From the IMG/VR virus record IMGVR_UViG_3300032516_000007, positions 1 through 64,000 of that record: 64,000 bases of DNA; one strand, written 5' to 3'. Shown here in pieces: positions 42,695 through 63,865 of this stretch. The notes beneath the pieces are model-generated. The model saw nothing but the letters and a program-made list of their open reading frames with translations, did not search any database and was not told the DNA's origin. The first letter of the stretch is position 1. Each line of letters begins with the position of its first letter. Source of the stretch: a virus. The translations under genes were made by a program, and so were the position numbers.

Positions 42695-45103
42695 GTGGAC
42701 CCACGGATCTCCCGTCAGGTTGATCAGGGGCAACTCAAAAAGGGATTAGATCTCATTGGTCAGTTGATGAGGTTGTCCCTCATCAAAGCTGATGAGACCA
42801 AGGGACCCCTGCCTGGGCAGGCCAAGCTACCAGGAACAAGTCAGGAACCATTTACTTTTAAGCAGCCTGGCGGCGTTCGTCTGACTACTCGTCCGTCTTC
42901 ACCAACCAGGCCAGTAGCATCTGGACCTCAACTCAAGCTGCCAGGGCATGAACCCCATCAGTCAAATCTTCCTCAGACAGAGAAGATCACTCCCAAAGTT
43001 CTACCTGAGCCTCATGCTCCTGAGAAACGTGAGCATGAGGCTGGTCCGCTTCTGATCGGTGGTGGACAATCAAAGCAAGCAGATTGGGGAGGTCTCGAGG
43101 CAGCAGCAAAAAGGGCTCAGGCTGCTGGTCCTGCATTTAAGCAAGAATCTGGATCAAAGATTTTCACTCCTGAGGGTCGAATAGTTGATCCTTCAGGGAA
43201 AACTCCATCTCGTCAACGTTTGGGTCAAGAGACGATGATGGCTGCACCCAGATCTGCCACACCTAAGATTGTGGTTCCGGGTGCGGAAAAGCCATCGGCT
43301 GAGATCATAACTCCTGGACCTCAATCAAAACCAGGAGCGGAGATCATTAAGCCTGCTCCAACTGTTGAGCCTTCAATTGGAACAGAGGGGCGTCGTAAGG
43401 AGATGATTGGTGAGGGGCTCGAGGCTGTCAGTTCAAAGCCAGGAGAAGAACGGACAGCAGCGATGAAAAGGACAGCAGCTCTTCTTGGTTCTAGAGGAAG
43501 AGAACGAGCTGCTGAAGCCCCAGTTTCGACGGAAGCTCGTCTGGCAACTCCTCAAAGTTACTGGATGCCAGGTAAGCCAGGTAAAGATCAACCTGCTGAA
43601 GCGAAAGTTCTTGGTAAACCAGAGGGTGAGGGTGATCTTACTACTGGGGAGGGTGGTAAGGAGCCATCTGGTAAGAAGGGTGGGAAGGAACCATCCGGGC
43701 TTCCTCCTTCGGGTTGGGATCCCTTCAAGAAGCTCAGTCGGAGAAGCAAAAGAAGAGGACCAAATCTTATAGGAGGATATGGGTTTGGTCATGCTATGGG
43801 GGCTACAGCAGCGTCACCGGGAGGGGGAGCTGCCCAGCTTGGAATGTTGACTGGGAGGGCGGTTTCAACGGTTCATGGATTGCTCAATCGTCAGGGCTCT
43901 CGTTACGGATCTCGTTATGAGATGGCTCGGCTTGGTCGGGAAGGTGAGCTGACTCGTCGAGCCCAACTTGGAAGAATGCAGGGTGAGGCTGGGGGTGTCA
44001 TGACCCAAGGTTCCATGGTAAGATCATTGTTCATTAGGGTTGATGATGGAGGGAATGAGCTGGTAAAATCTAGGATCAAACCTAAGAAACCAAAGTCTCG
44101 TCTTTTTGTTTCTCTCTATTCCAATTCTGCTTTGTTTGGGCGTGGAAAGAAGGAGAAGGAAAAGGAGCCAACGGTTCAGCTTCCGACTCTCATGCCTAAG
44201 ACTTCAAAACCTCGCACCGTCACTCTTTTTGGAAAAGCCAAGGATGAGTTCATTCCTGATCCTCAGAATGAGGATATCCAGCCAGATGAGGAAGATGGTG
44301 TGGCATCTGTGTTGGTGGGCGATAGTGATCTGGTGAGCAAGGCAGCTCGAGGACCCCGACCCCGACGGAGGACCCGGCGCTTGATCTTACATCATGAGAA
44401 GAAGATGGTGGAGCATCAGAATCTCATGGTCACGAGTCCCACTGCGGAGGGTGCGAATCTTCACGCTAAGGCAATGGGCCTACACCTTCAAGCTAGGGGT
44501 AGGCATATGAGAGGGGATGCCAGAGCAGAAAAGACTAGCATAGAAGCAAATGTTGCTAGTGAGTCTGCACATAGTGGGATCAACAAGGCTGGGGCAGCTC
44601 AAGAATCAACTGGAAGGTGGACCCTCGAAGATCCAGTACAGGCCAAGCGGGAGCAAGAGCATGGTCTGTATCGTCAACCCACAGGTGTGAGTGGTGGGCC
44701 AACTCCTGATCTTCCGGAGAGAGGTAAGGATTGGCATGGTACGGTTCCTGGGGTTCCCGACGAACCTCAGGATGATGATGAGGAAGAGATTGAGGAAACT
44801 TGGGCGGCTCCAAAGCCAATTCTGGAATCAGAAAAGAAGAAGACTTCAGAGGTGAGTAAAGCACTTGCCTCCTACTGTAGAACTCAGCAAAGAGCACGGG
44901 ATGTATTGAAGTCTCTCCCTGATCTCCATATTGGCCCAGATCTCTCTCCTCGTGAGTTGGAGTTTTTGAAATCACAGGGTGTTGATGATGACGCTATCAT
45001 ACGAGGTAATCTCAGGATCACTCCTCGCATGAGAGTTGAGTTTCGACAGTTCATGACGGACAGAGTGTTCAAGTCTCTGTCTGGGTTGAGGAATCAGACA
45101 TGA
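42695..45103 (+). CDS. Large low-complexity head-module protein with many x-K-[A/S/G] motifs
   Basis: LIKA, LVKS, FGKA, VSKA, INKA, VSKA, VLKS, VFKS; directly upstream of portal. Confidence 0.65.
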   Translation: MDPRISRQVDQGQLKKGLDLIGQLMRLSLIKADETKGPLPGQAKLPGTSQEPFTFKQPGGVRLTTRPSSPTRPVASGPQLKLPGHEPHQSNLPQTEKITPKVLPEPHAPEKREHEAGPLLIGGGQSKQADWGGLEAAAKRAQAAGPAFKQESGSKIFTPEGRIVDPSGKTPSRQRLGQETMMAAPRSATPKIVVPGAEKPSAEIITPGPQSKPGAEIIKPAPTVEPSIGTEGRRKEMIGEGLEAVSSKPGEERTAAMKRTAALLGSRGRERAAEAPVSTEARLATPQSYWMPGKPGKDQPAEAKVLGKPEGEGDLTTGEGGKEPSGKKGGKEPSGLPPSGWDPFKKLSRRSKRRGPNLIGGYGFGHAMGATAASPGGGAAQLGMLTGRAVSTVHGLLNRQGSRYGSRYEMARLGREGELTRRAQLGRMQGEAGGVMTQGSMVRSLFIRVDDGGNELVKSRIKPKKPKSRLFVSLYSNSALFGRGKKEKEKEPTVQLPTLMPKTSKPRTVTLFGKAKDEFIPDPQNEDIQPDEEDGVASVLVGDSDLVSKAARGPRPRRRTRRLILHHEKKMVEHQNLMVTSPTAEGANLHAKAMGLHLQARGRHMRGDARAEKTSIEANVASESAHSGINKAGAAQESTGRWTLEDPVQAKREQEHGLYRQPTGVSGGPTPDLPERGKDWHGTVPGVPDEPQDDDEEEIEETWAAPKPILESEKKKTSEVSKALASYCRTQQRARDVLKSLPDLHIGPDLSPRELEFLKSQGVDDDAIIRGNLRITPRMRVEFRQFMTDRVFKSLSGLRNQT

Positions 45104-47052
45104 TGCCCGGTGTTGACTATTCTGCAATTCAGAAGTCCATCGCAGACAGCACTCGTCTTGAGGACATCTATTCTGATGCCCAGCAGCTCAAGGCGATGAC
45201 CTCTCATGTTCCTGTGGTTACCAAGCAAGATCCAGAAGCTCTCCAGAAGGCGTGGCGCACCATGTCTATGGAGAAGCCTGTAAAGGGTCCTAAGTCTGTC
45301 TTCTTTGATCCTTTATCTCTTCAGTATGCGATGGGGTACAAGGATCGTCGATATTCCTTGACCTATGATACGTTGAAAAGAATCGTCAACCAGCTCAGCA
45401 TTGTGGCTGCGATTGTTAACACACGTATCGCTCAAATTGCTGCCTTTGCAATGCCTTATAGAACTACCAAGTCTCTTGGCTTCATGGTTAAGCACAAGAG
45501 TCCAGAGCACATGACCACTCAGAGTGAGCGACGTTTCATTCAGATGCTTGAAGCGTTTGTCTCAAGTTGTGGTGAGCCTGGGCGGCGAAATCCGTACAGT
45601 AGGTTTGATCGAGACGACTTCGAGGCGTTTTTGAAGAAGATCGTCAGGGATACGATGACCTATGACCAGATCGGAATTGAGATTGTTCCCAGGAACAATA
45701 CCATTCCCTTTGAGTTTCTGGCAGTGGATGGTTCTACACTTCGTCTGGCATCGGCTGACCGATTTCCTGGAAGCGGGAGTGAGTACAGTTACCATGCTCG
45801 AAATGTGGTGGGAGGTTTTACACCTTATCGTTTCCAAGGACTCTACACGGGATCCTATGGCTTAAACAATCCGCGACAAACTGATCCCGAGTCCATTCAG
45901 TATGTGCAGGTTGTCAATGGTCAGATCGAGAATGTTTACACTCGAGATGAGTTGGCTTTTGGCGTTCGGAATCCTCGAACAGATATCTACATTCAGGGAT
46001 ATGGTTTCGGAGAGATTGAGCAGCTCATTACCATCATCACTTCTCTTCTTTATGCCGAGGAGTACAACAAAAGATATTTCACCCAGGGATCCCATCCTAA
46101 GGGAGTTCTCAACTTTAAGGGAGATAACTGGACTCCAGACCAGCTCGAAGCATTCAAGCGTCAATGGATTGCTCAAGTAGCTGGAACAGAGAACAGTTGG
46201 AAGACTCCTATCACTCAGTCAGAGGGGATTGAGTGGATCAACCTCCAGATGTCCAACAAAGAGATGGAGTTTGGACGTTGGATTGAATACTTGATCAAGA
46301 TCGTTTGTGGTGTGTTTCTCATTGATCCCGCTGAGATCAACTTTGACCTTCATGGTGGTGTTCAACAGACACCCCTTTTCGAATCAAGTCAGGAATGGAA
46401 GCTCAAGGCTTCTCGGGATCGAGGGCTCAAGCCTCTTCTTCGCTTCATTGCCAAACTGATCAATACTCATATCATCGACAAGATCGATGACCACTTTGTT
46501 TTTGAGTTTGTGGGTCTGGATGAGCTTTCAGAGCAAGAGAAGCATGAGATGCTCAAGGAGCAGACCGCAAGCTACATGACTCTCAATGAGGGACGACGGT
46601 CGCTGGATCTTCCTGATCTTCCCTACGGGGATGTTCCGATGAATCAAGCTTACCTCCAGGTTCTTCAGTTGAAGATGCAGGAGAATCAGCAGGCAGAACA
46701 GAAGGAGCAGCAGGAACAGCAGATGGCAGCCCAGCAGCAACAGGCAGCGGCTCAACAACCTGGCCAACCACCCTCGGGTCAAGAGGGAGCCCCACCTCAA
46801 GGCCCTGTGGGAGCCCCACCTCAAGGCCCTGTGGGAGCCTCACCTCAAGGAGTTCCTGGGGTGAATCCTGGTGGTCCTGAGGCTGCTGCTGGTGTTGGGG
46901 CGGTTCCAGAACCAACGGGAGAGCCCACACCAGAGGAAGCTGCTGCTGTGAATCCTCCTCCTCAGTACGCTGCCAATTTTGGCAAGTCAATGAAGGGTAG
47001 TAGGGAGATTGTTATTACCCTTGATCATTGGAAAGACATGAAGCGAGGCTAA
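45100..47052 (+). CDS. Portal protein
   Basis: YGFGEIE, NKRYFTQG..PKGVL, FKRQW, MEFGRWIEYL, IDPAEINF, GLKPLL; resembles SPO1/Twort-type portals. Confidence 0.88.
   Translation: MMPGVDYSAIQKSIADSTRLEDIYSDAQQLKAMTSHVPVVTKQDPEALQKAWRTMSMEKPVKGPKSVFFDPLSLQYAMGYKDRRYSLTYDTLKRIVNQLSIVAAIVNTRIAQIAAFAMPYRTTKSLGFMVKHKSPEHMTTQSERRFIQMLEAFVSSCGEPGRRNPYSRFDRDDFEAFLKKIVRDTMTYDQIGIEIVPRNNTIPFEFLAVDGSTLRLASADRFPGSGSEYSYHARNVVGGFTPYRFQGLYTGSYGLNNPRQTDPESIQYVQVVNGQIENVYTRDELAFGVRNPRTDIYIQGYGFGEIEQLITIITSLLYAEEYNKRYFTQGSHPKGVLNFKGDNWTPDQLEAFKRQWIAQVAGTENSWKTPITQSEGIEWINLQMSNKEMEFGRWIEYLIKIVCGVFLIDPAEINFDLHGGVQQTPLFESSQEWKLKASRDRGLKPLLRFIAKLINTHIIDKIDDHFVFEFVGLDELSEQEKHEMLKEQTASYMTLNEGRRSLDLPDLPYGDVPMNQAYLQVLQLKMQENQQAEQKEQQEQQMAAQQQQAAAQQPGQPPSGQEGAPPQGPVGAPPQGPVGASPQGVPGVNPGGPEAAAGVGAVPEPTGEPTPEEAAAVNPPPQYAANFGKSMKGSREIVITLDHWKDMKRG
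46786..46850 (+). repeat. 24-bp coding tandem repeat (GAPPQGPV) in portal tail
   Basis: GGAGCCCCACCTCAAGGCCCTGTG, about 2.7 copies. Confidence 0.85.
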
Positions 47053-47054
47053 CT

Positions 47055-49388
47055 GTGTTGAAGAAATCCATAGATAAGAAGTCTACGATGTTTGAGTTTG
47101 GTTCCAAAGACCAGCAGGAAGCTGAGCTGAAGAAACCTCGTGATCTTCCTCTTCTGATCAGCAAGGAACGTCTCCCCAAAAAGACAATTCCAGAACCACG
47201 ACTCTCAAAGGAGACGTGGGCCGAGGCCAAGCATCAGTCAGACACAGAAAAGGCAATGGAGGAGTTGGCTCAAAGGGCCAGGATGAAGAAGCCTTCGGAA
47301 CATGCTCTTCGGGTGAGGTCTGAGCGAAAAGCACGTCTTGCTGAACCTTCACAGCGTACTGTCAAAGTTCATCTTGGGAAGACAACGCGCTCCCCAAAAG
47401 CAAAGATCGAGAAGGCTGGGAAAGAGAAGCATTACGGGACCCATTATGGAACAAAGGACCCTAAAGGATCGACAAAGCGAATTGCTGAGTATAAGACAAA
47501 GGGCGGAAAGATCAAGTCACCTCCTGACAGCCCAAAGGGTCGTGAGGAGATGGCTTCAGAGATGATTGCTCACCACCAACATCATCTTGGTCGTCATCCA
47601 GGCGGGAGGGCTCAGGCTATTGCCATTGGGCTTAATCAAGCTGGGATGAGTCAAGATCAGACGAGGAAAGCCATGGGAAACGCATTCATTCAAGAGTCTG
47701 CTGAAGCTCGGCTTGGGGAGATGTTTGGTGTTGAGCTGGATCTGAGTCCTGTTGATCTGATGAAGTCCATGACGCTTGCAAGCGAAGCAGATGTCATCGA
47801 ATCGCTGCGGGGGATTGGGAAGGCGATAGGGGATGGCAACACAGTGAAGGCTTACGTTGACTTCAAGAATCTGACTCAGAAGATTGCTACACGGGGAGGT
47901 GTGGACAACCCGACTGCGGTGGCAACCACCCTCTTGAAGAAAGGAAATCCCGGTGGCATGTCTGGCTATGAGAAGGGTGTGGCCATGTACGGAACCGATG
48001 GGATGAAGAAGATGGCTCAGGGTCATCTCACTTCTGAAGAGATGAAGACCCAGAAGGCGTATCCTCTTGGCGAGGGTCCCAAAAAGGTAGGTGGATCAGA
48101 GTTGTGGCTTGATCCTATTAAATCGAAAAAAGAAAGTGGGGATAAGAAGATCGATCTTGGTACAGCTCCACCACATCTTGGGAAGTACACAGAAGCATCT
48201 CGAGCAGAGAAGGCTATGGGGAAGCAAGAAGAAGAGGAGTTCGTTCCCAAGGACAAGCCCGACATCTCCAAGATGGGTCCTGGTCCGTCAGTCGGTGCTG
48301 GGATTGGTGGAGCTTCTGGGGGTCGTCCTTCTGTTGGAACTGGTCTTGGAAAGGGTGTGGGGGAGCAGAAGAAAGGATACAAAGGGGAGTGGAAAACCGA
48401 GGGTGGTGTCGATACTTTTAGTGGTGGGGAGAAAGACAAGCCCCTTGGTACTCTGCCCCATGAGCAGCCGGGTTTTAAGGCTCCCTCCCTGGGAGGATCA
48501 AAGCCTCCTCCCATGCCTCATGAGATCAAGGTTGGAACCTCTGGTGGGTTCAAAACGGGTCAAGGAGAGGGCGGCCCCCACATGATCACGTCGGCGAAAC
48601 CAGAAGTTCCAGCAATGCCCAAAGTCAAGGAACCATCGATGGAGCCTGGATCAACCCTTTCGTTGACCTCACTGAAGGAACCTGGGAGCAAGAGCGTGAA
48701 GAAAGCGATGCGTGAACTGATGGAGATGAGCAAGGGACATGGTGGGAAGGGTCCCGCCAAGACAGGTGGTGGTGAGTGGCATTGTCCCAATGCTGGGCCA
48801 GCCTATCGTGGTGTGATCGAGTGGGATGAGGAAGAGAATCAGGCTGGTTCTGGTCGGGCTCAGACGGGAGCTGGAACACCACATCCCCCCAACAGGGGAC
48901 CGGCGAAGACTGGTGCTGGTGAGACTCACCACCCAAATGCTGGGCCAGCACAGACCGGTGTTGGTGAGAGGCATTGGGAGGGTCGCGAGGTGAGCAAGGC
49001 CATGAAGGCTTCATCTGTCCCAAGACTGCCTCGTGGGATGGCCGCAAGCATGGACACCTGGAGATCAGCAACCAGCGTTCTGACACGGACCAATGCACTG
49101 CTGCGTCCTCAGATTGCTCTCATCCCCGATTCTCTGGCAGATGGGAGTGGGAGACCATCTACGCACACCGAGTTCTACAAGTCAGATCTGATGTCTTGTG
49201 AGAACTGTGGGAGAACATTTGCCAAGAGTCACGGTGAGTGTCCCACATGCATCATGAGTAAGGCTTTGACTTGCAAGTCTTGTGGTTCTGCCATGCACAA
49301 GGGTCGGGACGGTGATCTTCGTTGTTCAGCCTGTGGGCAGGGTACCATGAAGGCGTTGGATCAGAAGTCAGACGGATCAATCGGCTAG
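47055..49388 (+). CDS. Prohead-core/internal-like protein with KA/KS motifs, Gly-rich repeats and C-terminal Zn ribbons
   Basis: TEKAM, TRKAM, LMKSM, AEKAM, VKKAM, VSKAM; CENC, CPTC, CKSC, CSAC. Confidence 0.6.
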   Translation: MLKKSIDKKSTMFEFGSKDQQEAELKKPRDLPLLISKERLPKKTIPEPRLSKETWAEAKHQSDTEKAMEELAQRARMKKPSEHALRVRSERKARLAEPSQRTVKVHLGKTTRSPKAKIEKAGKEKHYGTHYGTKDPKGSTKRIAEYKTKGGKIKSPPDSPKGREEMASEMIAHHQHHLGRHPGGRAQAIAIGLNQAGMSQDQTRKAMGNAFIQESAEARLGEMFGVELDLSPVDLMKSMTLASEADVIESLRGIGKAIGDGNTVKAYVDFKNLTQKIATRGGVDNPTAVATTLLKKGNPGGMSGYEKGVAMYGTDGMKKMAQGHLTSEEMKTQKAYPLGEGPKKVGGSELWLDPIKSKKESGDKKIDLGTAPPHLGKYTEASRAEKAMGKQEEEEFVPKDKPDISKMGPGPSVGAGIGGASGGRPSVGTGLGKGVGEQKKGYKGEWKTEGGVDTFSGGEKDKPLGTLPHEQPGFKAPSLGGSKPPPMPHEIKVGTSGGFKTGQGEGGPHMITSAKPEVPAMPKVKEPSMEPGSTLSLTSLKEPGSKSVKKAMRELMEMSKGHGGKGPAKTGGGEWHCPNAGPAYRGVIEWDEEENQAGSGRAQTGAGTPHPPNRGPAKTGAGETHHPNAGPAQTGVGERHWEGREVSKAMKASSVPRLPRGMAASMDTWRSATSVLTRTNALLRPQIALIPDSLADGSGRPSTHTEFYKSDLMSCENCGRTFAKSHGECPTCIMSKALTCKSCGSAMHKGRDGDLRCSACGQGTMKALDQKSDGSIG

Positions 49389-49393
49389 CCATC

Positions 49394-51400: not shown

Positions 51401-51422
51401 ATAGAGAAGGAGTCTGATCAAC

Positions 51423-51893
51423 ATGGCAAACAATCCATACGCTGGTGCAGTTCCCCTCAATCTTCGTCCTGAGGAGACAAGTGAGGTGGTGGCCAAGTCC
51501 ACCAGTTATCGTCCTGGGGAGGTCCATCCGATGACCTATCGCCATCCTGCCCAGAATCCATCTTTGGGTCGAGAGGATGGGAACACTCCTCTTCGTCGCT
51601 ACCCAAATGGTCTGCTGGATGTGGGCTATGTGGCGAGCTTCATCATTGAAGTGATCCACAAAGCTGAGTTGGGTGGCAATCTGACCAACTTCGAGAAGGC
51701 ACTGCTGACCCTCATCCTGCCTGGTCATTTCCAGTTGATCGATGCTCAGATTGCTGCATCCTTCGCTCACCTGACTGATGAGGAGAAGCTTCTTCTGTCA
51801 GTCAAGGTCATGCGGCACTTCAATGAGGAGCTGAATTACAACGCTGGAGCGGGAGGCGGTAGTGTGCCCTTCCGTCATGTCACAAAAAGTTAG
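51423..51893 (+). CDS. Head-module protein
   Basis: AAGGAG RBS; VAKS, IHKA, ends VTKS. Confidence 0.6.
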   Translation: MANNPYAGAVPLNLRPEETSEVVAKSTSYRPGEVHPMTYRHPAQNPSLGREDGNTPLRRYPNGLLDVGYVASFIIEVIHKAELGGNLTNFEKALLTLILPGHFQLIDAQIAASFAHLTDEEKLLLSVKVMRHFNEELNYNAGAGGGSVPFRHVTKS

Positions 51894-52107
51894 GCTTCAG
51901 ATCCCTGACGATGTTCCTCTTGAGGAAGTCGTCAAGGCTCTAGAGTCTGCCGCACGGGGGCTTCGCCAGGAACAGGAGGCGAAGCCCCTGTCAGGTATTG
52001 AAGATCGGAATCCAGCATCCAAGCACATGATGGAGTTCATCGATAGTTCCTACTTGACCATGGTGGATAGCTTGGCAAAGGAGATTGGGAAGGTTCTAGA
52101 ATCATGA
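51877..52107 (+). CDS. Small head-module protein
   Basis: VVKAL. Confidence 0.55.
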   Translation: MSQKVRLQIPDDVPLEEVVKALESAARGLRQEQEAKPLSGIEDRNPASKHMMEFIDSSYLTMVDSLAKEIGKVLES

Positions 52108-52277
52108 TCAGGAAGTTGCCATTGCGTCCCATCATGAAGTCCAAGCTCACCTCTGATGGTGAGCGGGTACTTCAGATTCTCCAGAGGGAATATCAGATGG
52201 AGCGTGAGGCGGCGGTTCGTTTGATGAGAGATGGCGGGGCCATGTTGGCCCTGGCTATTGTGACTCGGAGTCGATGA
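52104..52277 (+). CDS. 57-aa protein (not in ORF track)
   Basis: MIRKLPLRPIMKSKL...; ATGA overlaps at both ends. Confidence 0.55.
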   Translation: MIRKLPLRPIMKSKLTSDGERVLQILQREYQMEREAAVRLMRDGGAMLALAIVTRSR

Positions 52278-52999: not shown

Positions 53000-53012
53000 A
53001 CAGGAGTGGAAC

Positions 53013-53648: not shown

Positions 53649-53665
53649 GATGTTGGTTCTAGAAC

Positions 53666-54574: not shown

Positions 54575-57387
54575 ATCACTTCATCAGCAAGACTATTAGG
54601 TACTATCATCCTTACTTACCAACTCACACCCTTCGTAAGGCTGAAGAGCCCGGTGAGTTCCGTGGTGGGGACCCCGAGGAGATGCGTCTGAAGAAGGAAG
54701 AAAAGCAAACTGAGCTAGGTGAATCTGGGGATGCTGGAGAAGATCAGGGTGGGGAAGAGCCAGATCCTGCCGATGTGGAGGAGGCTCAGCAGGCAGATCA
54801 GGATAAGTCAGAAGGGAAATCTGTCAGTATTGGGAAAGCGATTACCACAGCCATGGGTGCGGTTGAGGCTTCTCCATGGCCACCCAACACAACGGATTAT
54901 CCTTCCAAGGATCGGAATGGTAATCCAGTTCATGACAATGTGGACTTTCACTTTCGTGGGGTCAAACAGCCCTGGATTGAAGTGGGTCCCCCTCGTCAGG
55001 GTCCCAATCAGAAGAAGCCCTGGTCAGAGGTTCTGGGTCTTCCCCCATTGATGGCTCCTTCTGGACCTCCCTATTGGCGTCAGAAGCTTCTACAGGAACG
55101 AAGGGATGAGCTTGGGATGAGTCCCAGACCCAGGCTCATCGAACCTACTGATATGTACGCTATGCAGTCTGTGGCAAAGGCTTTCGATGATCTTCTAGAG
55201 AAGGCAAAGGCGACGCTTGGCGGGGAGTCTGCTGAACACCACCCATATATTCCTGGATATAAGGATAAGATCAAAACACCTGTTTCTTTGAATGTTGATA
55301 GCTTAGATCATGTTCCTGAGCATATAAATAAACATGTCTCTAAGATTGTTGGTCCTCATTGGAAAGATCATATTCATAGATATGTCAAAGAAGTTAACAG
55401 TGGGGAGGGTTTAAGTTTTACTCCTTCTCCTGTTCTTCGAGCTATGGAAGATTGGATGGGAGGTGGTGGTAAGTTTCCACATAAACGAGGGGCAGGGCAG
55501 GCTATTGTGTCCAATGATGTAAAAGCTTTGAATCATCTGACACAACGTGCAGGTCATGCTGGGTGGCATCGGTCTGGTGTAGTTGCTGGAGTTTTATCCA
55601 GGATGCCTTTGAATCATGAAGCTATCAAACATCAAACTGGTGGTAGTATTCCAACGCATCTTTATCGTGGTAGTATGTATGTTCCCCATGCGGCAAAGGT
55701 TGGTGATGTTTTTCATCTTTCTCCATCTTCATTTAGTTCCGGTAAACTTGTGGAGCCATTCAAAGACTATCCAGGGCTTATGAAGATGAGGTTACCGTCC
55801 AGAGGATTTAGTTTGGGTAATCACAGTTTGTGGCCAGAACGGGAGGTACTTGTTTCTGGTCATTATAGAATCCATAATATATCTTATCCTCGTGGTCGTA
55901 CTATGTTTCATGTTGAAGAGATTCCTCATGGTGAAGTTAATAAAGCTATTGAGAATCAATCTCAGCATGAAATGAACCAATTTATAGCTTCTCATCCTTC
56001 TGAGATGGTGTCTGCTAAAGGAGCAGAGGATATTGAGCATGTGGGGAGGGGACTTGGAAAGAGAATGGCTCCCTGTCCCTACGGAGGGGGAATCGAATGC
56101 CTTCGGCATGGTGGAGATGGTGCTGATGCTCATTACCCATCATTCCACCATAAACATGAAGATCAATCCCTGAGTCACGAAGATGTTCTCCATCAGGAAG
56201 CTGGAAAAGATCCTGGGGAACGAACACATAGCCTTAACCAGATGCAGAAGAAGGCTCTTGTTGGGCATGTGATGTCCAGGTACGAAAGTGAAGGTACAGA
56301 TCTAGATAACCCTGATACAAGATCGAAGTACATGAAGACACTTCGGCATATTCACGGTTATTTGGGTAAAGACGCAGAGTCAAACGCATGGAGAAAGAAA
56401 GCCATTTCGGAGTGGAAGTCCAAGATTAGTCAGTATCATGGTTCAGAGGATCAAAAGCCAGAGGGTCACCTGGCCATGGAAGCTGCTGAGAAGCAGATCG
56501 ATGTGACTTGTGATTTTTCAAGGGAAGTCGGTTGGGGTTCTACAGATAGTAAAGAGTCAGATCTTCCAGAGAAGATGTTGGAGCAAGCATTTGGTAGGCA
56601 AATGAGGATTAGTGACTTTGAGAGGGCGTATACTGTCGATGATGATAATCTAAAACTTCCAACTCCTGATGGTGGATATGGGGCAAATATTCATCACATC
56701 AACATTGTCGAAAAGGAACAGGGCCAGTACGAGATCAATGTGATGGGGTCTATTGATTATAGTTATGGTGAGGGTAGTGAGCGGGCAGCTACATTCGTTC
56801 GAGTGATTCACTGTTCTGTTGGTGGTAAGAAGAAGCAAGATCGTTTCATTATGGTTCACCATGACAAGATATTTGTGCTAGATGCTGATCATAGTAAGGT
56901 TGGTGGGCATCAGAACTCTGGATTGAGTACGGATTTTCTCAAGCATAGTGTTATTGAATACCAGAAATGGGGGGTTAATCAGATCACAACAAGTCCGCAC
57001 TGGGTGGGTAAGTACACTTGGGCTCGAATGGGATTCCAGTGGAATGAGGAGGCTGCTGCCACTGTGGGTCGCCATATGACCAAATTTTTGATCAGTCATT
57101 ATGGGATGGAGAAGAAGGCTGCTGCAAAATTGGCGGCTAAATTTGCTGATATGCCATCCAGATTTGCTGTCAAGACGCTTTCTAATCCTCAATTGACTGA
57201 AGATGGTCAGGCATTGTTTAGATCTTTCGAGAAGAGCGAGTACAGATGCAAGCCAGAGGAGGTTGGGAAGGCATTCCTTCTTAGTGATGGTGGTAACCAA
57301 GTTTGGATGAATGGGGGCATGGTGGACATGTCTCGGAAAACCAGTCCTAGTTACCGTCAATTGAGGAAGTATCTGGGTTTGAAGTAG
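54571..57387 (+). CDS. Multidomain protein: ADP-ribosyltransferase plus GNAT acetyltransferase
   Basis: ART R-S-E motifs LYRG, SSFS, EREVL; GNAT-like HQNSGLSTDFL...GKYTWARMGF. Confidence 0.75.
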   Translation: MNHFISKTIRYYHPYLPTHTLRKAEEPGEFRGGDPEEMRLKKEEKQTELGESGDAGEDQGGEEPDPADVEEAQQADQDKSEGKSVSIGKAITTAMGAVEASPWPPNTTDYPSKDRNGNPVHDNVDFHFRGVKQPWIEVGPPRQGPNQKKPWSEVLGLPPLMAPSGPPYWRQKLLQERRDELGMSPRPRLIEPTDMYAMQSVAKAFDDLLEKAKATLGGESAEHHPYIPGYKDKIKTPVSLNVDSLDHVPEHINKHVSKIVGPHWKDHIHRYVKEVNSGEGLSFTPSPVLRAMEDWMGGGGKFPHKRGAGQAIVSNDVKALNHLTQRAGHAGWHRSGVVAGVLSRMPLNHEAIKHQTGGSIPTHLYRGSMYVPHAAKVGDVFHLSPSSFSSGKLVEPFKDYPGLMKMRLPSRGFSLGNHSLWPEREVLVSGHYRIHNISYPRGRTMFHVEEIPHGEVNKAIENQSQHEMNQFIASHPSEMVSAKGAEDIEHVGRGLGKRMAPCPYGGGIECLRHGGDGADAHYPSFHHKHEDQSLSHEDVLHQEAGKDPGERTHSLNQMQKKALVGHVMSRYESEGTDLDNPDTRSKYMKTLRHIHGYLGKDAESNAWRKKAISEWKSKISQYHGSEDQKPEGHLAMEAAEKQIDVTCDFSREVGWGSTDSKESDLPEKMLEQAFGRQMRISDFERAYTVDDDNLKLPTPDGGYGANIHHINIVEKEQGQYEINVMGSIDYSYGEGSERAATFVRVIHCSVGGKKKQDRFIMVHHDKIFVLDADHSKVGGHQNSGLSTDFLKHSVIEYQKWGVNQITTSPHWVGKYTWARMGFQWNEEAAATVGRHMTKFLISHYGMEKKAAAKLAAKFADMPSRFAVKTLSNPQLTEDGQALFRSFEKSEYRCKPEEVGKAFLLSDGGNQVWMNGGMVDMSRKTSPSYRQLRKYLGLK

Positions 57388-57395
57388 GGTGATCT

Positions 57396-58688
57396 ATGCT
57401 TAATTTGTTCGATGATCTAATGAAGGCGGCCCGTCGGGTATCTCCATTCCCCGTTCCTCAAGGAATGACCCATGGAGATGTGCTTCGTCATCAAGCAATA
57501 CATGTTCACCGTGCCGGGGGTCTTCCATCCTCCAGGGAGCATCGATTAGCTCTACAGGCGAAACCATCACCTCTTACATCGGAGCATGTGGCAGAAACAG
57601 TATCAAAGAATAAACTTCTTCATCCTAAACATGTAACAGCATTGATTGATCATGCTCATGATCATTTTAGTAGATTGTTGAGGACGCCTGGAAGGATGAA
57701 TGAAGAATCTTACCATAAGGTAATGGAAACTCTTGGTGATGCTGTTAATGTTGCTCATGAGACTAAGCACCCAAAAAGAAATTCATTAAGGAACTTGCAG
57801 GCCAAAGCAATTAGGAATCATGTTGGTTCTTATTCTTATCCAGTAGTAAATACTAGATTCAAAAATATGGAAGGTGTTGTTTCGCATGTTACTCCAAATG
57901 GTTGGGCAGAAGCTAGAGAGAATACTCCAGCACACAAGTCAACTCTTGGTCATTACACTTTGCATAATGTATTCAAAGATAAAGTAAATGATGCTGATCA
58001 TTATTTACATGATTCTTTTAAGATGGATCATCCAGACTATACGTCTAAGGTTAACGATTCTGCTTTGGAATTTGAATCAGATATTAGTTCAAAAGAACAT
58101 CAAAGACGGAGTATTCAAAGTACACATTCTTGGCCACATAGGGTAACTGTATCGGGGGATATCGTTCACCATAGTGGAGGTTTGATTGGTCAATTTAGTA
58201 GAACTTTTGGAAGAGATGTCAATGGTGATCTTCGTGTAAATCATGATGGTCTGAGCTTAGATAAAGAACATCAGGGATATGGTATTTCTAAGGCTCTTAT
58301 GAAATCATCATTGGAGCACTATAGACAGATGGGAGTTAAGACTGTTCACGTTGGGCCAGCCGATGTTGGAAGATACACGTGGGCCAAGATGGGATTCCAT
58401 TGGGGTGAAGATGGGACAAGGCATGTCAAAAGGACGTTACCAAAGTTCTTAGTGGAGCATGGAGAGGATCCCAAGTCTGCTCAAGAGATTACTGATAGGC
58501 ATGCTGACAAGCCATGGGAGATAGCTTCTCTTCATATCGGCGGGAGGCATGTTGGGAAGAAGTATTTGTTAAGAGGAGATGTTTCTGGGCAGAGTGGACC
58601 ATGGGGGTACACTGGAGGTTCTTTGGAGTTGCATCCCGATAACCCTGGATACCAACATATCAGCAAATACGTTGGATTGAATAGGTGA
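57396..58688 (+). CDS. GNAT-domain putative internal head protein
   Basis: LDKEHQGYGISKAL...GRYTWAKMGF; N-terminal DLMKA. Confidence 0.75.
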   Translation: MLNLFDDLMKAARRVSPFPVPQGMTHGDVLRHQAIHVHRAGGLPSSREHRLALQAKPSPLTSEHVAETVSKNKLLHPKHVTALIDHAHDHFSRLLRTPGRMNEESYHKVMETLGDAVNVAHETKHPKRNSLRNLQAKAIRNHVGSYSYPVVNTRFKNMEGVVSHVTPNGWAEARENTPAHKSTLGHYTLHNVFKDKVNDADHYLHDSFKMDHPDYTSKVNDSALEFESDISSKEHQRRSIQSTHSWPHRVTVSGDIVHHSGGLIGQFSRTFGRDVNGDLRVNHDGLSLDKEHQGYGISKALMKSSLEHYRQMGVKTVHVGPADVGRYTWAKMGFHWGEDGTRHVKRTLPKFLVEHGEDPKSAQEITDRHADKPWEIASLHIGGRHVGKKYLLRGDVSGQSGPWGYTGGSLELHPDNPGYQHISKYVGLNR

Positions 58689-58693
58689 ATTGA

Positions 58694-59449
58694 ATGAAAC
58701 GTCCAATGAAAGAATCGGCTTACGATTTAACTGATCTTGTTGATCAGGATAAATCTGGTGATATTCACTATTCTACTGATGGTACTAGAACCATGAATCA
58801 TGAAGGGATGATTGATTGGGATCAAAGTACCGAAGCGATGGACCTTGGTGACAGTCATCCAGAGGACAAAGTTGTTTTCGATTACGATGGCAATGTGATT
58901 CATGATCCTGAAATGGAGGGTCAGGTAGATGGTGGAGACGAGGAGCCGGAAGCTTCACCAGAAGAGGAGCTTCCTGGTGATTCTAGAACCACGGGAGAAC
59001 CCACCAAGGAGCCTGCCATGGGAACTGAATCTCCAAATCCCCAGCCTACTCAACCGTTAATGGGGATAGCCGCTCAGGGGGGCCAAGAGGAGCCTCAGGA
59101 AGCTCAGGGGGAGCCCCAAGGGGGCCAGGAGACAACTCAGGGGGCTCAGGAAGAAGAGCAGACCCAGGAGGGTCAGGAGCCATCCCAGGAGGGTTCTGAG
59201 GAGCAGGGAGACCTTCTCTCAGTGGATGACCCTGCCCAGGCCCAGCAGCTCCTCCAGAACGCCGATAAGATGGACCGGCCTCACATGCTTCAGGTGGCTA
59301 AACTCATCTGGGGGGATGACTACGAGTTTGAGGACTGGATGACGGACGATTACGTGCGAGCAGACCTGAAGGGGTCACTCGAGGATGTTCTCGAGAGCCA
59401 TGAAGAGGGAGTTGCTCCTGTCGAAGGGGAAGACGAGGAAGAGGAGTAG
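58694..59449 (+). CDS. Highly acidic protein (scaffold-like?)
   Basis: D/E/Q-rich low complexity. Confidence 0.55.
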   Translation: MKRPMKESAYDLTDLVDQDKSGDIHYSTDGTRTMNHEGMIDWDQSTEAMDLGDSHPEDKVVFDYDGNVIHDPEMEGQVDGGDEEPEASPEEELPGDSRTTGEPTKEPAMGTESPNPQPTQPLMGIAAQGGQEEPQEAQGEPQGGQETTQGAQEEEQTQEGQEPSQEGSEEQGDLLSVDDPAQAQQLLQNADKMDRPHMLQVAKLIWGDDYEFEDWMTDDYVRADLKGSLEDVLESHEEGVAPVEGEDEEEE

Positions 59450-59456
59450 ACCGAAG

Positions 59457-62400
59457 ATGATGCTTCCTCTGTGGATCGATCTTGTCAAGGCACGCAAAGG
59501 TGAGCGTGTTGGGGGAAAGTATATCCACAGATGGTGGAACTCTGGTCAGAACAAGTGGAACTACAAGTATTCTGATAAGCCTCACCCCCAGCATGGAATT
59601 CCCTATGTGGCTACTTCCAGCCACACGATTGAGGTTCACCCATCAGTGAAATCTGAAGCCTCACCAGAAGAGGCGTTCCACCAGTCGGCCAGGGCAGAGC
59701 TGAAGCATGGGGAGGAGCAGAAGGCCACATTCAAAAACCCCAGTGGGGAGGTTCTGTTCACGGTCCACGTCAAGCCTGGGCTCGACAATCCTATCCATGT
59801 TGCCCCTCCTGGAACCCAATCAGCTCGGGGGGCTCAGAGGATGGGCAGTTTGCGCCGATTCGAGAATTGGTTTCGTCGGCGTATGACCACACAGACAGTT
59901 TATGATGCTCATGGTGATCCTTGGTTTGATGTGCGGCTTCGTGGTCAGAGTGGTGAGTATCATCGTGAGGGTAAGATTCTGAATCCCAGCGATCGTTTGT
60001 CAGTTCGCTACTACCCTGACAGTCCCTACAATCCCTATCCGAAAGAAGAGACAGCCTGGGTTCCAGGCCCATTTCGTCAGGGCAGCATGAATGAGTGGGT
60101 CAGAGGGGAACATCGAAAACAAAGAGTATCTGGGCAGCGTGTGAAACCTGCCAAAGTTTTTTCAAAGGATGCAAAGCGGCCAGCCACCACGATGCTGGAG
60201 CAGGGGACCATCACTTGGAAGCAGGTTTTTCAACCTAAGAAGGGAAGGGGTGGAAAGTGGTGGAAACGAGTTGCGACGAATCTTAGGAGTAAAGATCAAT
60301 TCTATTCTCGCATTATTCAGGAGCACTTTGGGTTGATTGTGAATCAGGCTATTCGTCAGTTGAAGATCTACTACATCACTGACAAAGATGGTCATCCAGA
60401 TCGAAGAGCAGTGGCTCAGCTACTTGGATACTATGGGGGACCTGGACGCAAGATGAAGGTTCAGGTTGATTCGGATTCTCCTACTCATCGGGCTGTTGAG
60501 AGAGCAGTCAATTCTTATGATCCTGAGAAGGGATGGAGATTCAATACCTACTTGGGTCACTGTGTGTGGTGGGAGCAATTCAAAGAGACCAAGAGGATTC
60601 TGGATCAGATAACTGCCCATAGAAAGCTGATCTCTAGAACTTCAGACAATGCTGGAAACATTCTGGATGAGATTAGTCTGACCCAGGCTGCTCCCGGTCA
60701 TGAAGCGATCATTGGGGCTGGGGTTCATTACCAGACAGCCGAGGAGCACGTATCCCAAGATCAGGAAGTAGTTCAGAATTGGTTGAATCGGCAAGAGGAT
60801 AAGTTGTCACGCTACGTTGTGGCTGAAGATGATCCTGATCGTCAGATGATAGCGTTCAATGCACTTCAGCATCTTGATGCAGTCAAGAACATCCAGCAGG
60901 CCATGGCTTTTGTGGTTCACTATCAGTCCTCGGGTGGTGATGGGTTCGCAGAGCCATTAGAGTCTCCTGAGGATCGCTCAGTGGAGATTGCAACGCCTAG
61001 GCTGACCAAGCAGGAGAAGCTTAACTGGGTGAATCTTGTCACTGAGCACCCAACTCTCACGAATCGAGAGAGGCATGCCCTCCTGGTGCTGGCTCCTACT
61101 GGTGATCTAACTGACATGGTTCCGTTCGATGAAGTTGCATCGAAACTAAACAAAGATCATCCAAAGGAGTTCCCGAGGGAGCCTAGGGTGAATGAGGTGG
61201 TGGACCTTTTCTTGGATGCCTACACGAAACTGGTTGGCTCACCGGAGTTTGAAGCCATGCAGAGGAAGCTGTTCGCTGTTGCCAAGGCTATTGGTATCCT
61301 GAGCAAGGGGATCAAACGGGGAGGGAAGGCTCAGGACTATGAGTACCTTCGCAGAGAGGGCCTGCCTGGTGGCTACAAGTATTTCTACAAGGAGCCTGGA
61401 ACCGAAAACATCATTCGGGGCACAAATGCTCCAGTGGATCATCCTCACCACGATGCGTCCCTTGGGGTGTCTCAAAAGCATCCTCGTGAGCCTGACCCCG
61501 TGAAAGACCCTCAGTATTTTGATCCTCGTAATGGCAGAAAACTCCACCGAGCTGCCCCTGAACATGCTGAGTGGAACAAGAACTACGGTCTGGAGCGTCC
61601 CCTTTCTGCGTGGGTAGCAAAGTGGCCCAAGGCAGATCCGAACAATCCTGATCCCGAATACGCCTACTACCATTCAGATCAGGAAGGTAGAGGGGATCTG
61701 AAGTTCCACGTTAGCAATCGTCATTTCGCTGTGCAGTTGCCCAAGGTGAGGAAACTCTATAGTACCTTGATGAAGAGTAAGGAATTCTCAAGTCGAGTTC
61801 TGGGATTGATGATCTCTCTTCTGGATCAGGTGTATATGCGTCCTGGTAAGAAACAGCATGAGGAGAAGACTGGACATGTTGGGCTGGTTACATTGAAAGT
61901 ATCCAACGTTGTGATGAAGGGTAATGTAGCTACTTTCTCTTATGTGGGTAAGAGGGGAGTGAACATTGTTCACAGTATCACTCTAGATCATCCAACTGCA
62001 AAGATCATGAAGGATCTGATCAAAGCTCCCGGTAAATCACCCAAGGACTATTTGTTCTCTGTTCCGGTCCAAGTTGGTAGGAGAGTCAAATTCCGGGATG
62101 TTGGTTACAACAAGTTGTCCAGGACCCTTGATGAGGCGGTTGGTGTCACTCCCAAGCAATTCAGGATCTATCATGGGACAGAGGCGTTCTCGAGGACGTT
62201 TGAGCAGCTCCTCGAGGGGGTCAAGGGAAGAGTAACCCCCAAGGTTCTAGAAGCACTCACTGAGCAGTCGGCCCTCGAGGTGGCAAGGATGCTGGATCAT
62301 TATGTTGGCAAGGGGGCAGAACAGAAACTTCACAGTCAGACGGCTTTGAAGAGCTATATTGATCCTGTAGTGGTGAGGTCTCTTTATCTCAATGCCCTTA

Positions 62401-62873
62401 CTCCAGATGTGAGCAAGGCATTCAAGCTTCAGGGAACTACAGAATTCCAGGGTCTCCCCATCAGCATTGAAAACAAGAAAGGATCAATTCGTAGGTGGTA
62501 TGATCCCCACGAGAAGAGGAATGGGGTTACTCCCATGCACTTTGATTATGGGTACATTCGTAGGACAGAGGGCATGGATGGAGATCATGTGGATGTCTAT
62601 ATTGGCCCCCACCCTGAGTCCACAATAGCGTTTGTGGTGCATCAGATGAAGGGTCCAGATTTCTTCGAGTTTGATGAAGATAAGGTGATGTTGGGATTCT
62701 CCTCTGCTGATGAGGCCCGATTGGCATACCTCAAACAGTACGACAAGCCTGGGTTCTTTGGTGGGATCACTGCTATTCCGATGGATCAATTCAAGGAGAA
62801 GCTGGCTCAAACCAAAGATCATCCGATGATGCTGAAATCGTTTGTGTGGTTTGGGAATGAGGTGCTTCAGTGA
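59457..62873 (+). CDS. Polyprotein: sigma-70-like factor, topoisomerase IB, inorganic pyrophosphatase
   Basis: Sigma2 AVNSYDPEKGWRFNTY, sigma4 LTNRER...FDEVA; TopIB MRPG, GKRG, KQFR, LDH, KSYIDP; PPase IEN..GS.R, YGYI, DGDHVDV, DEDKVMLG. Confidence 0.82.
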   Translation: MMLPLWIDLVKARKGERVGGKYIHRWWNSGQNKWNYKYSDKPHPQHGIPYVATSSHTIEVHPSVKSEASPEEAFHQSARAELKHGEEQKATFKNPSGEVLFTVHVKPGLDNPIHVAPPGTQSARGAQRMGSLRRFENWFRRRMTTQTVYDAHGDPWFDVRLRGQSGEYHREGKILNPSDRLSVRYYPDSPYNPYPKEETAWVPGPFRQGSMNEWVRGEHRKQRVSGQRVKPAKVFSKDAKRPATTMLEQGTITWKQVFQPKKGRGGKWWKRVATNLRSKDQFYSRIIQEHFGLIVNQAIRQLKIYYITDKDGHPDRRAVAQLLGYYGGPGRKMKVQVDSDSPTHRAVERAVNSYDPEKGWRFNTYLGHCVWWEQFKETKRILDQITAHRKLISRTSDNAGNILDEISLTQAAPGHEAIIGAGVHYQTAEEHVSQDQEVVQNWLNRQEDKLSRYVVAEDDPDRQMIAFNALQHLDAVKNIQQAMAFVVHYQSSGGDGFAEPLESPEDRSVEIATPRLTKQEKLNWVNLVTEHPTLTNRERHALLVLAPTGDLTDMVPFDEVASKLNKDHPKEFPREPRVNEVVDLFLDAYTKLVGSPEFEAMQRKLFAVAKAIGILSKGIKRGGKAQDYEYLRREGLPGGYKYFYKEPGTENIIRGTNAPVDHPHHDASLGVSQKHPREPDPVKDPQYFDPRNGRKLHRAAPEHAEWNKNYGLERPLSAWVAKWPKADPNNPDPEYAYYHSDQEGRGDLKFHVSNRHFAVQLPKVRKLYSTLMKSKEFSSRVLGLMISLLDQVYMRPGKKQHEEKTGHVGLVTLKVSNVVMKGNVATFSYVGKRGVNIVHSITLDHPTAKIMKDLIKAPGKSPKDYLFSVPVQVGRRVKFRDVGYNKLSRTLDEAVGVTPKQFRIYHGTEAFSRTFEQLLEGVKGRVTPKVLEALTEQSALEVARMLDHYVGKGAEQKLHSQTALKSYIDPVVVRSLYLNALTPDVSKAFKLQGTTEFQGLPISIENKKGSIRRWYDPHEKRNGVTPMHFDYGYIRRTEGMDGDHVDVYIGPHPESTIAFVVHQMKGPDFFEFDEDKVMLGFSSADEARLAYLKQYDKPGFFGGITAIPMDQFKEKLAQTKDHPMMLKSFVWFGNEVLQ

Positions 62874-63865
62874 TCACCACAACTTCAGTTGGAGAGAAGT
62901 TTCAGAAGCCAATCCGAAGATTTGGCAGGTACGTTGCTCTGACTCCAAGTCATCTACATCGGAAGTTGAAGAATGGCCACTACTCAATCATCTCTGCTGG
63001 TGCGAATAGATCTGATCCCAAAGAGAAAGATTTGCCCTGGGATCATCCCATGTTCAAGGAGCGACACGAGAAGCTGAGGCAAGATTTGATCCATCATGGG
63101 CTTGATCACACAGAAGGGATGGGTCACTACGAGGGGAAAGAGCATTCGTTTGTTGTGTACCATGGTCCAGGTGGGAGGACTCCACCGGATGTTTCTGGAA
63201 CCAAATCCTTTATGGTGCATCACGAACATCCCAGTGAGCATGCAACAGTCAGGGACCTTGGGAAAAAGTACAATCAGCAGAGTGTGATTCATTCCTTGGG
63301 TGGTAAGCATGAACTTCATTTTGTGACAGGTGATCATGCAGGGACTCACCACAAGGGAGTGGGCCACGAGATCAAGCCCCATGCCGAAGACTACTATACT
63401 GAGATCAAACACAAGGAACCTCGCTCAACTAAGTTCTCTCTGAACTTAAATTGGGGTACCCATCATCCAGAGCATGAGGCAGTGCTGAAGGCTATGGTTC
63501 CAGAATCAGGAGAGGAAGGGGATGGGGAAGAAGAAGGGAGTTCTCACATCCACCACGTGACTGCTGATCCTCCCGATCAGTTCCCTCATGAGATAGAGTT
63601 TAACCGATGGTTGCACTCTCATCCAATCCATGAGAGTGATCATGAGTGGAATTCAGTCAAGACAATGGGGGGCTTCAAAGATCTCCACATCCCAAGTCCC
63701 GAAGGGGAAGATGATGAGCAATCGTCTGCCGAGTCTGATCGTGCTGGATTCCAAGGTGGTGAACCTGATCAAGGGTCTGATGGGGAGCCCGAGTCCGCAG
63801 AGCCTGAGGACTACTCCTACCTCGACTCTTACCAGCATGGAGATCGAAAGCCTGCTGAAAAGTGA
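62870..63865 (+). CDS. SAM lyase (T3 SAMase-like) domain protein with acidic tail
   Basis: SIISA, RH..L..DL, GHY...EHSF, LGKKYNQQSVI. Confidence 0.55.
   Translation: MITTTSVGEKFQKPIRRFGRYVALTPSHLHRKLKNGHYSIISAGANRSDPKEKDLPWDHPMFKERHEKLRQDLIHHGLDHTEGMGHYEGKEHSFVVYHGPGGRTPPDVSGTKSFMVHHEHPSEHATVRDLGKKYNQQSVIHSLGGKHELHFVTGDHAGTHHKGVGHEIKPHAEDYYTEIKHKEPRSTKFSLNLNWGTHHPEHEAVLKAMVPESGEEGDGEEEGSSHIHHVTADPPDQFPHEIEFNRWLHSHPIHESDHEWNSVKTMGGFKDLHIPSPEGEDDEQSSAESDRAGFQGGEPDQGSDGEPESAEPEDYSYLDSYQHGDRKPAEK

Follow-up and report, generated by a model that had tools for sequence, protein, structure and literature searches.

Why do the proteins encoded between positions 42695 and 63865 of a 64,000-nucleotide stretch of viral DNA (bases 1-64000 of the IMG/VR virus record IMGVR_UViG_3300032516_000007, hereafter the window) so often carry, near their ends and between their domains, a hydrophobic residue, any residue, a lysine and then alanine, serine or glycine? 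The initial annotation of this region took the motif for a protease-cut linker between swappable enzyme modules, which would be loaded into the prohead, freed there and injected with the DNA. The comparative analysis reported here leads to a similar answer: the genes around and after the portal gene probably encode virion cargo of the polyvalent or MuF type, processed at the lysine motif by a prohead protease of the SPO1 type.

The protease that this answer calls for, as well as the major capsid protein (MCP), had been sought in the window and lie just outside it. The head-maturation (prohead) protease is encoded at genome positions 69956-70837 (phrog_1028 at 3e-47), the scaffold at 70875-71819 (phrog_15087), and the MCP at 71850-73298 (phrog_752 at 1e-88), while the portal gene (45100-47052; Pfam Phage_portal 3e-22, phrog_12 9e-54) is inside the window and is followed, within 42695-63865, by 14 genes with few family matches. 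Identity to SPO1-like Herelleviridae is ~41% for the portal, 30-39% for the protease (against annotated prohead proteases), and 41-44% for the MCP, and on these alignments the head module (portal, prohead protease, scaffold, and MCP) is a distant relative of that of SPO1/Herelleviridae. The portal is directly followed by the protease in SPO1 and Listeria phage P200, whereas here ~23 kb of additional genes, the cargo block, separate the two. This block varies from 9 to 22 kb across the clade, and the portal-to-MCP distance among relatives ranges from 11.7 to 24.8 kb.

The motif, defined as [ILVMF]-x-K-[ASG], was counted in the 123 called proteins and compared with the number expected from each protein's own composition. 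Between 42695 and 63865, 64 sites were observed versus 27.3 expected (Poisson p 1.5e-9), and the protease, scaffold, and MCP together hold 21 versus 4.0, the scaffold by itself having 13 versus 1.9. The early genes (1-42676), with 41 sites versus 46.1, and the tail genes, from 73.4 kb to the end, with 43 versus 41.0, are at expectation. The enrichment of head-module over other proteins that had been anticipated is, thus, present, and it is not shared by the non-structural genes. The motif instances first quoted for the portal, DUF5661, 938-aa (amino acids), GNAT-like, 1162-aa, and 331-aa proteins were all located in these genes; only the 'KKAM' quoted for the DUF5661-like protein fails the motif definition. 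The comparison was extended to 23 related IMG/VR loci whose portals are 52-69% identical to this one, and which are phylogenetically non-independent: downstream of the portal they contain 601 sites versus 236 expected, and upstream 211 versus 179. When the two near-complete relatives are divided into 10-kb bins, enrichment is found only from portal to MCP (1.9-3.9x), the other full-length bins being at 0-1.4x.

The specificity of the signal was profiled on the pooled data by varying a single position at a time against per-protein expectations, which replaced a comparison of log-odds in Lys contexts that was confounded by composition. At P1, lysine alone is enriched (2.4x, with arginine at 0.95); at P3, enrichment is restricted to I, V, L, and M (2.2-2.6x) and F (1.7x); and at P1' it is strongest for S (3.3x), followed by A (2.2x) and G (1.6x). 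Additional preferences surround the motif, for acidic residues at P4/P5 and a hydrophobic one at P2'. Control proteins stay at ~1 in the same profile, and no excess of this size appears when the pattern is given, as a control, R or E at P1, or D/E, I/L/V, or T/N/Q at P1'.

One of these sites falls where maturation is known from homologues. The MCP site LHK29↓A30 (the arrow marking the putative scissile bond) matches, with no offset in the alignment, VVK24↓S25 of Staphylococcus phage 812, whose MCP is in the PDB both as a 463-aa full-length chain (5lii) and, in its mature form, as a chain of 439 aa with S25 as first residue (9row); LNK↓A of SPO1 gp6.1 lines up with it too. By homology with phage 812 and SPO1, LHK29↓A30 is, therefore, predicted to be the MCP maturation site. 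The classical precedent is found in A511 and HK97, whose capsid proteins mature at Lys↓Ser. Multiple cutting is canonical for scaffolds, and that of this phage, with its 13 sites, is matched by those of two relatives with 12 and 15. The likeness to SPO1/Herelleviridae extends beyond the homologous portal, protease, and MCP and the shared predicted MCP cleavage position to a crowding of the motif in the SPO1 scaffold and protease: in SPO1 (NC_011421 41157-44097), the scaffold gp3.3 holds 11 sites versus 1.3 expected and the protease gp3.2 8 versus 1.5, with further sites at 9 and 33 in the portal and LNK23↓A in the MCP. Since the cultured SPO1 carries the same motif signature, it can serve as an experimental proxy for the cleavage rule.

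Site positions also stay conserved among sequences of low identity. In the portal, K50 is conserved in 14 of 15 orthologues and K629 in 13 of 15; K21 and K163 of the protease are conserved in 6/6, K25 of the small protein 51423-51893 in 19/19, and most scaffold sites in 3-4 of 4 sequences. The portal would, thus, be trimmed at its N-terminus (to K50) and at its C-terminus (after K629). Since protease K163 sits after the catalytic domain, the protease is predicted to process its own C-terminus, as T4 gp21 and SPN3US gp245 do. A limited look at the literature found no usable cleavage code for Herelleviridae. From its sequence behaviour, the motif is most likely what the prohead protease of this phage recognizes as its cleavage code.

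The same motif marks the ends of the cargo proteins. Over this phage and its relatives, a site falls among the first 30 aa in 110 of 197 head or cargo proteins, versus 21 of 189 controls (p 2e-21); in this genome, a site occurs within the first 50 residues of 13/16 head or cargo proteins versus 15/79 controls. Given the likely true starts of two cargo genes at 49394 and 59457, at least nine proteins open with a leader of 7-14 residues, for example, M-L-N-L-F-D-D-L-M-K↓A, M-M-L-P-L-W-I-D-L-V-K↓A, or, in the protease, M-I-L-D-L-L-K↓S.

Domain boundaries, the other place where the motif had been said to occur, were approached through joints, a joint being a cargo-protein terminus whose counterpart, in a homologue from another phage, lies in the interior of the protein, with boundaries de-duplicated at 80% identity. 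Among 39 non-redundant fission or fusion boundaries, 18 lie 5 or fewer residues from a site, versus 3.9 expected (p 9e-9). Both locations first proposed for the motif are supported by counts.

The 1162-aa protein, in which a ~600-aa N-domain, a TopIB, and a polyvalent-type pyrophosphatase (InPase) follow each other, offers the clearest examples. Its InPase domain begins directly after VSK1011↓A, and in 11 relatives this residue is also where the InPase starts, either as a protein of its own or as the N-terminal part of another. A site (G-K-L-I-K↓S or the like) is found at the C-terminal edge of the InPase in 14 of 16 contexts, regardless of what comes next. The TopIB module is preceded by VAK634↓A-I-G-I-L-S-K641↓G; the equivalent in fused relatives is L-S-K↓A-A-L-G-I-L and similar, and stand-alone TopIB proteins start with M-W-D-L-N-K↓A-V-G-L-P, so that the predicted mature N-terminus is identical in both forms. 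More generally, relatives have separate TopIB and InPase genes whose ends coincide with sites of the 1162-aa protein, and at the TopIB and InPase junctions, as at the end of the MuF domain, the motif recurs from context to context. In the AF2 model of this protein (mean pLDDT 77), the low-confidence linkers (1-45, 639-649, 1008-1013, and 1152-1162) hold 5 of its 10 sites, at 14, 35, 641, 1011, and 1151 (p 0.008).

Other proteins of the block behave likewise. The 302-aa MuF-like protein ends at the point where the 920-1256-aa MuF fusions of 8 relatives carry I-S-K↓A (residue ~300-305); these relatives have a variable C-terminal part fused to the MuF-like domain, and in this genome that domain and the next protein are encoded by separate genes. 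Residue 70 of the DUF5661 protein is the exact joint of two modules found separately in relatives. In the 938-aa protein, an insert (212-458) resembling an ADP-ribosyltransferase (ART) starts 2 residues past LEK211↓A and contains VNK458↓A, and P0002, 98% identical in the flanks, is without residues ~214-503. In P0009, the ART-like module stands between a 17-aa leader (…L-Q-K17↓S), the same as that of the 692-aa protein, and V-H-K294↓S, then F-F-K308↓A, beyond which follows the body of a protein homologous to the 692-aa one. This module is, thus, edged by sites in two unrelated host proteins. Finally, the N-module of the 938-aa protein is fused ahead of the sigma-like/TopIB/InPase protein in P0006-8, with a site at each joint. 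Insertion, fusion, and splitting of modules at the sites is the pattern seen in the relatives, among which the enzyme modules are indeed swapped, as first proposed.

These observations suggest the following mechanism. The clade would have inserted, between portal and protease, a variable block of virion cargo genes, the kit comprising MuF-like, TopIB plus pyrophosphatase, DUF5661, GNAT-like, SAM-lyase-like, and ART-like modules and a helicase-like giant protein. The prohead protease would cut after Lys in (D/E)(D/E)-[I/V/L/M/F]-x-K↓[S/A/G]-[L/I/F], and the same cleavage code would serve to fragment the scaffold, to remove a 29-aa capsid propeptide, and to trim the portal and the protease itself. 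At the motif, cargo proteins would lose N-terminal leaders of 7-17 aa, which are probably capsid-targeting peptides like those of T4, along with short tails at the C-terminus, while further cuts would separate the enzyme modules within them. Because a module between two sites would be released whatever its neighbours, modules could be inserted, fused, or split at the sites. Actual cleavage, packaging, and delivery into the host are what we infer from these data.

The joints themselves could be read otherwise. In an unlikely alternative, only terminal leaders and tails would be removed, the sites at joints being relics of gene fusion that are cut poorly or never, and the polyvalent proteins would act intact. 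Internal joints do match the termini of stand-alone homologues, as a relic would, nearly all cuts mapped in SPN3US take off N-terminal propeptides (PMC10052503), and plasmid polyvalent proteins are transferable at full length (PMC5512222). Unselected relic sites should, nevertheless, decay, whereas the junction sites are conserved among relatives only 25-50% identical and lie within predicted flexible linkers; moreover, a close relative shows module insertion with a site at either side. Processing at the joints by the prohead protease, thus, remains the preferred reading.

A further alternative, which we consider improbable, holds that the motif-processed proteins are not injected: they would be internal scaffolding, a kind of 'inner body', or late cytoplasmic enzymes, and their fragments would be lost or kept in the capsid. 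The site density of the 786-aa and 802-aa proteins is indeed scaffold-like, and for many modules neither a fold nor a function is known. The TopIB catalytic motifs (R, K, R, and the SYIDP-Tyr) are kept, however, the InPase is well conserved, and the MuF-effector architecture, together with the RelA/SpoT, GNAT, and InPase modules of relatives, fits the repertoires of known injected effectors (PMC5512222), which favours delivered cargo. That the short and loose motif is no cleavage site at all, and instead a linker, packaging, or recombination signature of head-module genes or a compositional artefact, is very improbable, given expectations drawn from each protein's own composition, same-genome controls at 1.0, no excess with Arg at P1 or other residues at P3 and P1', and the coincidence of the motif with a homologous MCP site of experimentally known maturation.

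Several observations weigh against processed, delivered cargo as proposed here. Chance would account for about 27 of the 64 sites (~40% of instances), and several sites fall within folded domains, for example, in GNAT motif A (299/303) and in TopIB (797/845/880), where they are probably not cut; site 976 of the 1162-aa protein precedes the TopIB catalytic Tyr, so a cut there could inactivate the enzyme. Few or no sites occur in the MuF-like (0), acidic 251-aa (0), and SAM-lyase-like (1) proteins. Stand-alone InPase proteins of relatives are without N-terminal leader, so that leader-based targeting cannot be universal. The head module of Listeria phage P200 is only weakly enriched, and the code is, therefore, not equally visible across Herelleviridae. 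The clade is without cultured member, its closest isolates being ~41% identical in portal and MCP. Lastly, a tail-region protein (genome 86102-86686) exceeds expectation, with 6 sites versus 1.3. A second tail-region protein (genome 88001-90571) is also above expectation, with 6 versus 2.5. The excess in these two is either chance among ~45 proteins or a sign of extra protease substrates outside the head module.

A bolder version can be put forward only tentatively, and we would sooner doubt it than adopt it: the lysine site might be a universal socket, any domain placed between two Phi-x-K↓S/A sites of the head module being loaded, excised, and delivered. The block would then be a quickly evolving injected kit, in which the sigma-like, TopIB, and pyrophosphatase modules, a pre-made set for DNA topology and transcription, act on the incoming genome, as in a poxvirus core, and the ART, GNAT, SAM-lyase, RelA/SpoT, and helicase modules serve counter-defence.

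How far does the proposed arrangement depart from known systems? In T4, the cuts made by gp21 follow L/I-x-E, the scaffold ends up in many fragments, and N-terminal propeptides of 7-65 aa are removed (PMC9026906). A capsid-targeting sequence (CTS) of ~10 aa (IPI-III) suffices for loading and has been proposed as an evolutionary route to load varied proteins, and the packaged ADP-ribosyltransferase Alt is cut at both ends (PMC9026906). The present code is similarly short and three-positioned, with a hydrophobic P3, any P2, and a charged P1. It differs from that of T4 in that P1 is Lys instead of Glu and in that protease and capsid are of the SPO1 type; in addition, the cargo is a 25-kb multi-module enzyme block with predicted inter-module cuts, whereas T4 packages small single-domain internal proteins.

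In the giant phages phiKZ and SPN3US, the proteases gp175 and gp245, respectively, cut A-x-E sites in ejection proteins, portal, MCP, and the protease, and propeptides carry multiple copies of the motif (PMC10052503). The resemblance lies in a prohead protease with a defined motif acting on many head and internal proteins, which is here predicted from sequence. In contrast, the giant-phage cuts concern mainly N-terminal propeptides, motif and protease lineage are different, and module-swapping at sites is described for none of those phages.

The cargo recalls the polyvalent proteins of Iyer et al. (2017), multi-domain virion-delivered effectors with InPase, GNAT, ART, RelA/SpoT, and MuF fusions, whose mosaic architectures need processing into units, for which an embedded zincin-like MPTase domain has been proposed (PMC5512222). 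Here, in contrast, processing is predicted to be the task of the prohead protease, with a defined linker code as its target, and TopIB is no hallmark listed for those proteins. Pfam scans of the cargo proteins found no peptidase family and no MPTase (zincin-like), a divergent domain being possible. Similarity also exists with the polymorphic effectors of the MuF family (Jamet et al. 2017, PMC5576092), which have a MuF-like N-domain and variable C-terminal modules and are encoded after the portal, although the MuF-like domain here is divergent and in a separate gene, and the fusion point in relatives bears the protease motif.

By analogy, the arrangement, thus, follows the T4 CTS/gp21 system, the head proteolysis of phiKZ/SPN3US, and the polyvalent/MuF virion effectors; it is not a new system, and the novelty first claimed for it was overstated. 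What is new is a predicted Lys-specific code for an SPO1-type protease, read purely from sequence; the apparent use of this code between enzyme modules besides leaders; the comparative evidence, from alignments, for modules inserted, split, and fused exactly at sites; and the extent and make-up of the cargo block, TopIB included.

The cleavage code of a head protease would, thus, be readable from sequence alone, and, being common to cultured SPO1, it is testable. It would predict the mature products of ~15 proteins and account for module exchange without loss of function, and the inter-module joints of polyvalent virion effectors would be definable by the prohead protease instead of an embedded peptidase. 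If the reading is true, injected effector sets could be predicted from metagenomic phage genomes, the order leader, site, payload, site would suggest itself as a natural design rule for loading foreign proteins into SPO1-type capsids, and a virion-borne topoisomerase IB would join the phage proteins delivered with DNA.

The window is part of a 115,041-bp linear contig with a CheckV completeness estimate of 68%. The real genome probably measures ~170 kb, since the two near-complete relatives (94-96% complete, n=2) measure 163 and 171 kb. The + strand carries nearly all genes of the contig, including all those of the window described below; they were called with a simple codon-usage caller, start codons being inferred. 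The 21-kb region had no Megablast match among isolated phages, a sequence search of the protease against the PDB gave none either, and PHROGs supplied names only for the portal, protease, scaffold, MCP, and InPase-bearing families. The terminase model PF03237 has no match anywhere in the 115-kb contig, which says little because of the contig's incompleteness.

The domain calls made in the initial annotation fared unequally. The TopIB, polyvalent-type InPase, and DUF5661 modules are confirmed by sequence models; the GNAT and SAM-lyase calls rest below Pfam thresholds, the ART call goes back to a pattern seen by eye, and the sigma call is borderline. Scanning of motif-cut segments with Pfam at E up to 1 returned nothing for the ART-like, sigma-like, 802-aa, 786-aa, and 692-aa parts.

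Directly upstream of the portal, an 802-aa protein (42695..45103) holds 10 sites versus 3.3 expected and matches no Pfam or PHROG family. In relatives it is encoded by two genes, or its C-terminal ~200 aa stand alone beside the portal, and it is a probable head-module substrate. The portal (45100..47052) carries the sites IQK12↓S, LQK50↓A, and FGK629↓S. In three relatives the portal measures ~1,000 aa and not ~650 (L021:9944-12928, L023:9899-12958, and L024:9956-12958), owing to an insertion of ~350 aa that is intein-like in appearance.

Next come two large cargo proteins. The 786-aa protein (47028..49388), with a Cys-rich C-terminus, has 13 sites versus 4.6 expected, a leader ending at K13, and mosaic homology with shorter proteins of the relatives L004 and L005. 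Homologues of the 692-aa protein (49322..51400) align with it from residue 25 onward, and 49394 is its probable true start, which leaves a leader of 14 aa ending with LSK↓A. They are followed by a small head-module protein of 156 aa (51423..51893), found in all relatives, whose 19/19 conserved site is VAK25↓S, and by a 241-aa cargo protein (52274..52999) with a 10-aa leader (IHK10↓S) and 4 sites versus 1.1, whose N-part is reused in fusion proteins of L004 and L011.

The 211-aa protein (53013..53648) consists of an N-module and DUF5661 (Pfam 1.7e-13, residues 95-138), the latter flanked by MRK70↓A and VTK147↓S. The 302-aa minor head protein (53666..54574), which has no motif sites, is MuF-like by atlas features and structure, with a feature score of 0.95 to Phage_Mu_F clusters and TM values of 0.55-0.67 to MuF, MuF-ART, InPase-MuF, and portal-MuF clusters; the Pfam MuF model PF04233 finds nothing in the contig, this protein included.

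The 938-aa multi-module protein (54571..57387) has 7 sites versus 3.7 expected, including VAK203↓A, LEK211↓A, and VNK458↓A, and is laid out as a leader (K23), an N-module, the ART-like insert (212-458), a middle part, and a GNAT-like C-part. Seen by eye, the insert contains HLYRG, SSFSS, and PEREV, that is, the R-S-E pattern (R / S-x-S / E-x-E) of ART; P0009, the single homologue found by exhaustive profile search, retains the R, S-x-S, and second Glu. The module has no Pfam match and the AF2 model of the 938-aa protein is unusable (pLDDT 37), so that its ART identity is an unproven lead. The 430-aa protein (57396..58688), with a 10-aa leader (LMK10↓A), matches GNAT Pfam families at E 5e-4 to 5e-3, under their cut-offs. 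The C-part of the 938-aa protein (~685-938) is seemingly paralogous to the GNAT-like domain of this next gene (189-429), a paralogy that relies on the P0004 link, 30% identity, and similar C-terminal ends; the tandem genes 54571-57387 and 57396-58688 may, thus, contain two GNAT-like modules. Then comes a very acidic 251-aa protein (58694..59449), with 0 sites versus 0.3 expected, whose C-terminal 55 aa are common to L004 and L011 proteins.

The polyvalent 1162-aa protein (59385..62873, probable start 59457) bears LVK35↓A, VAK634↓A, LSK641↓G, VSK1011↓A, and MLK1151↓S, and comprises an 11-aa leader, the ~600-aa N-domain, TopIB, InPase, and an 11-aa tail. It is, with the 938-aa protein, one of those in which a single polypeptide combines two or more unrelated domains. 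TopIB is recognized by Pfam Topoisom_I (2e-23) and by Foldseek matches to the Deinococcus and variola enzymes (2f4q TM 0.59), and InPase, one of the hallmark domains of polyvalent proteins (PMC5512222), by PF18823 (2.4e-37) and Foldseek pyrophosphatase matches. The N-domain is possibly sigma-like: residues 36-634 have no Pfam match and no credible Foldseek match exists for this domain, the leads being an atlas score of 0.85 and a homologue, P0006, with Sigma70_r2 at 24.5 bits versus a cut-off of 24 in the aligned region. Relatives carry other payloads, such as RelA/SpoT (2e-18), an InPase-GNAT fusion, and an intein-bearing InPase. The RelA_SpoT alarmone-synthetase protein (319 aa, L033:11266-12225:-, relative G001) is absent from the genome of the window, and a LAGLIDADG_3 match breaks up the InPase domain of L024:16488-19058.

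The 331-aa protein (62870..63865) associates an acidic tail with a SAM-lyase-like domain that ends at VLK207↓A and matches S-AdoMet_lyase at 2.9e-5 (24.5 bits for a cut-off of 28). The domain (17-210) forms the C-terminus of a 446-aa L004 protein, and a homologue of the tail (228-293) follows InPase in L011. The last cargo gene (63630 to genome 69329; window part 63630..64000) encodes ~1,870-1,899 aa, its start codon being uncertain, and overlaps the 331-aa gene by 30-236 nt according to the start codon chosen. Its sites cluster at the ends (25, 48, 77, 95 ... 1880), residues 848-1879 being free of them. Motifs resembling those of SF2 helicases (GGGKT, DEPQ, TATP, and QAHGRVDR) can be seen by eye in this ~1,900-aa protein, which has no Pfam or PHROG match and is reminiscent of P1 DarB. 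Directly before the protease, a Cys-rich (zinc-ribbon-like) protein of 81 aa (genome 69571-69816) is conserved in 9 relatives, 8 of which retain its motif site K15. The protease of one relative measures 568 aa.

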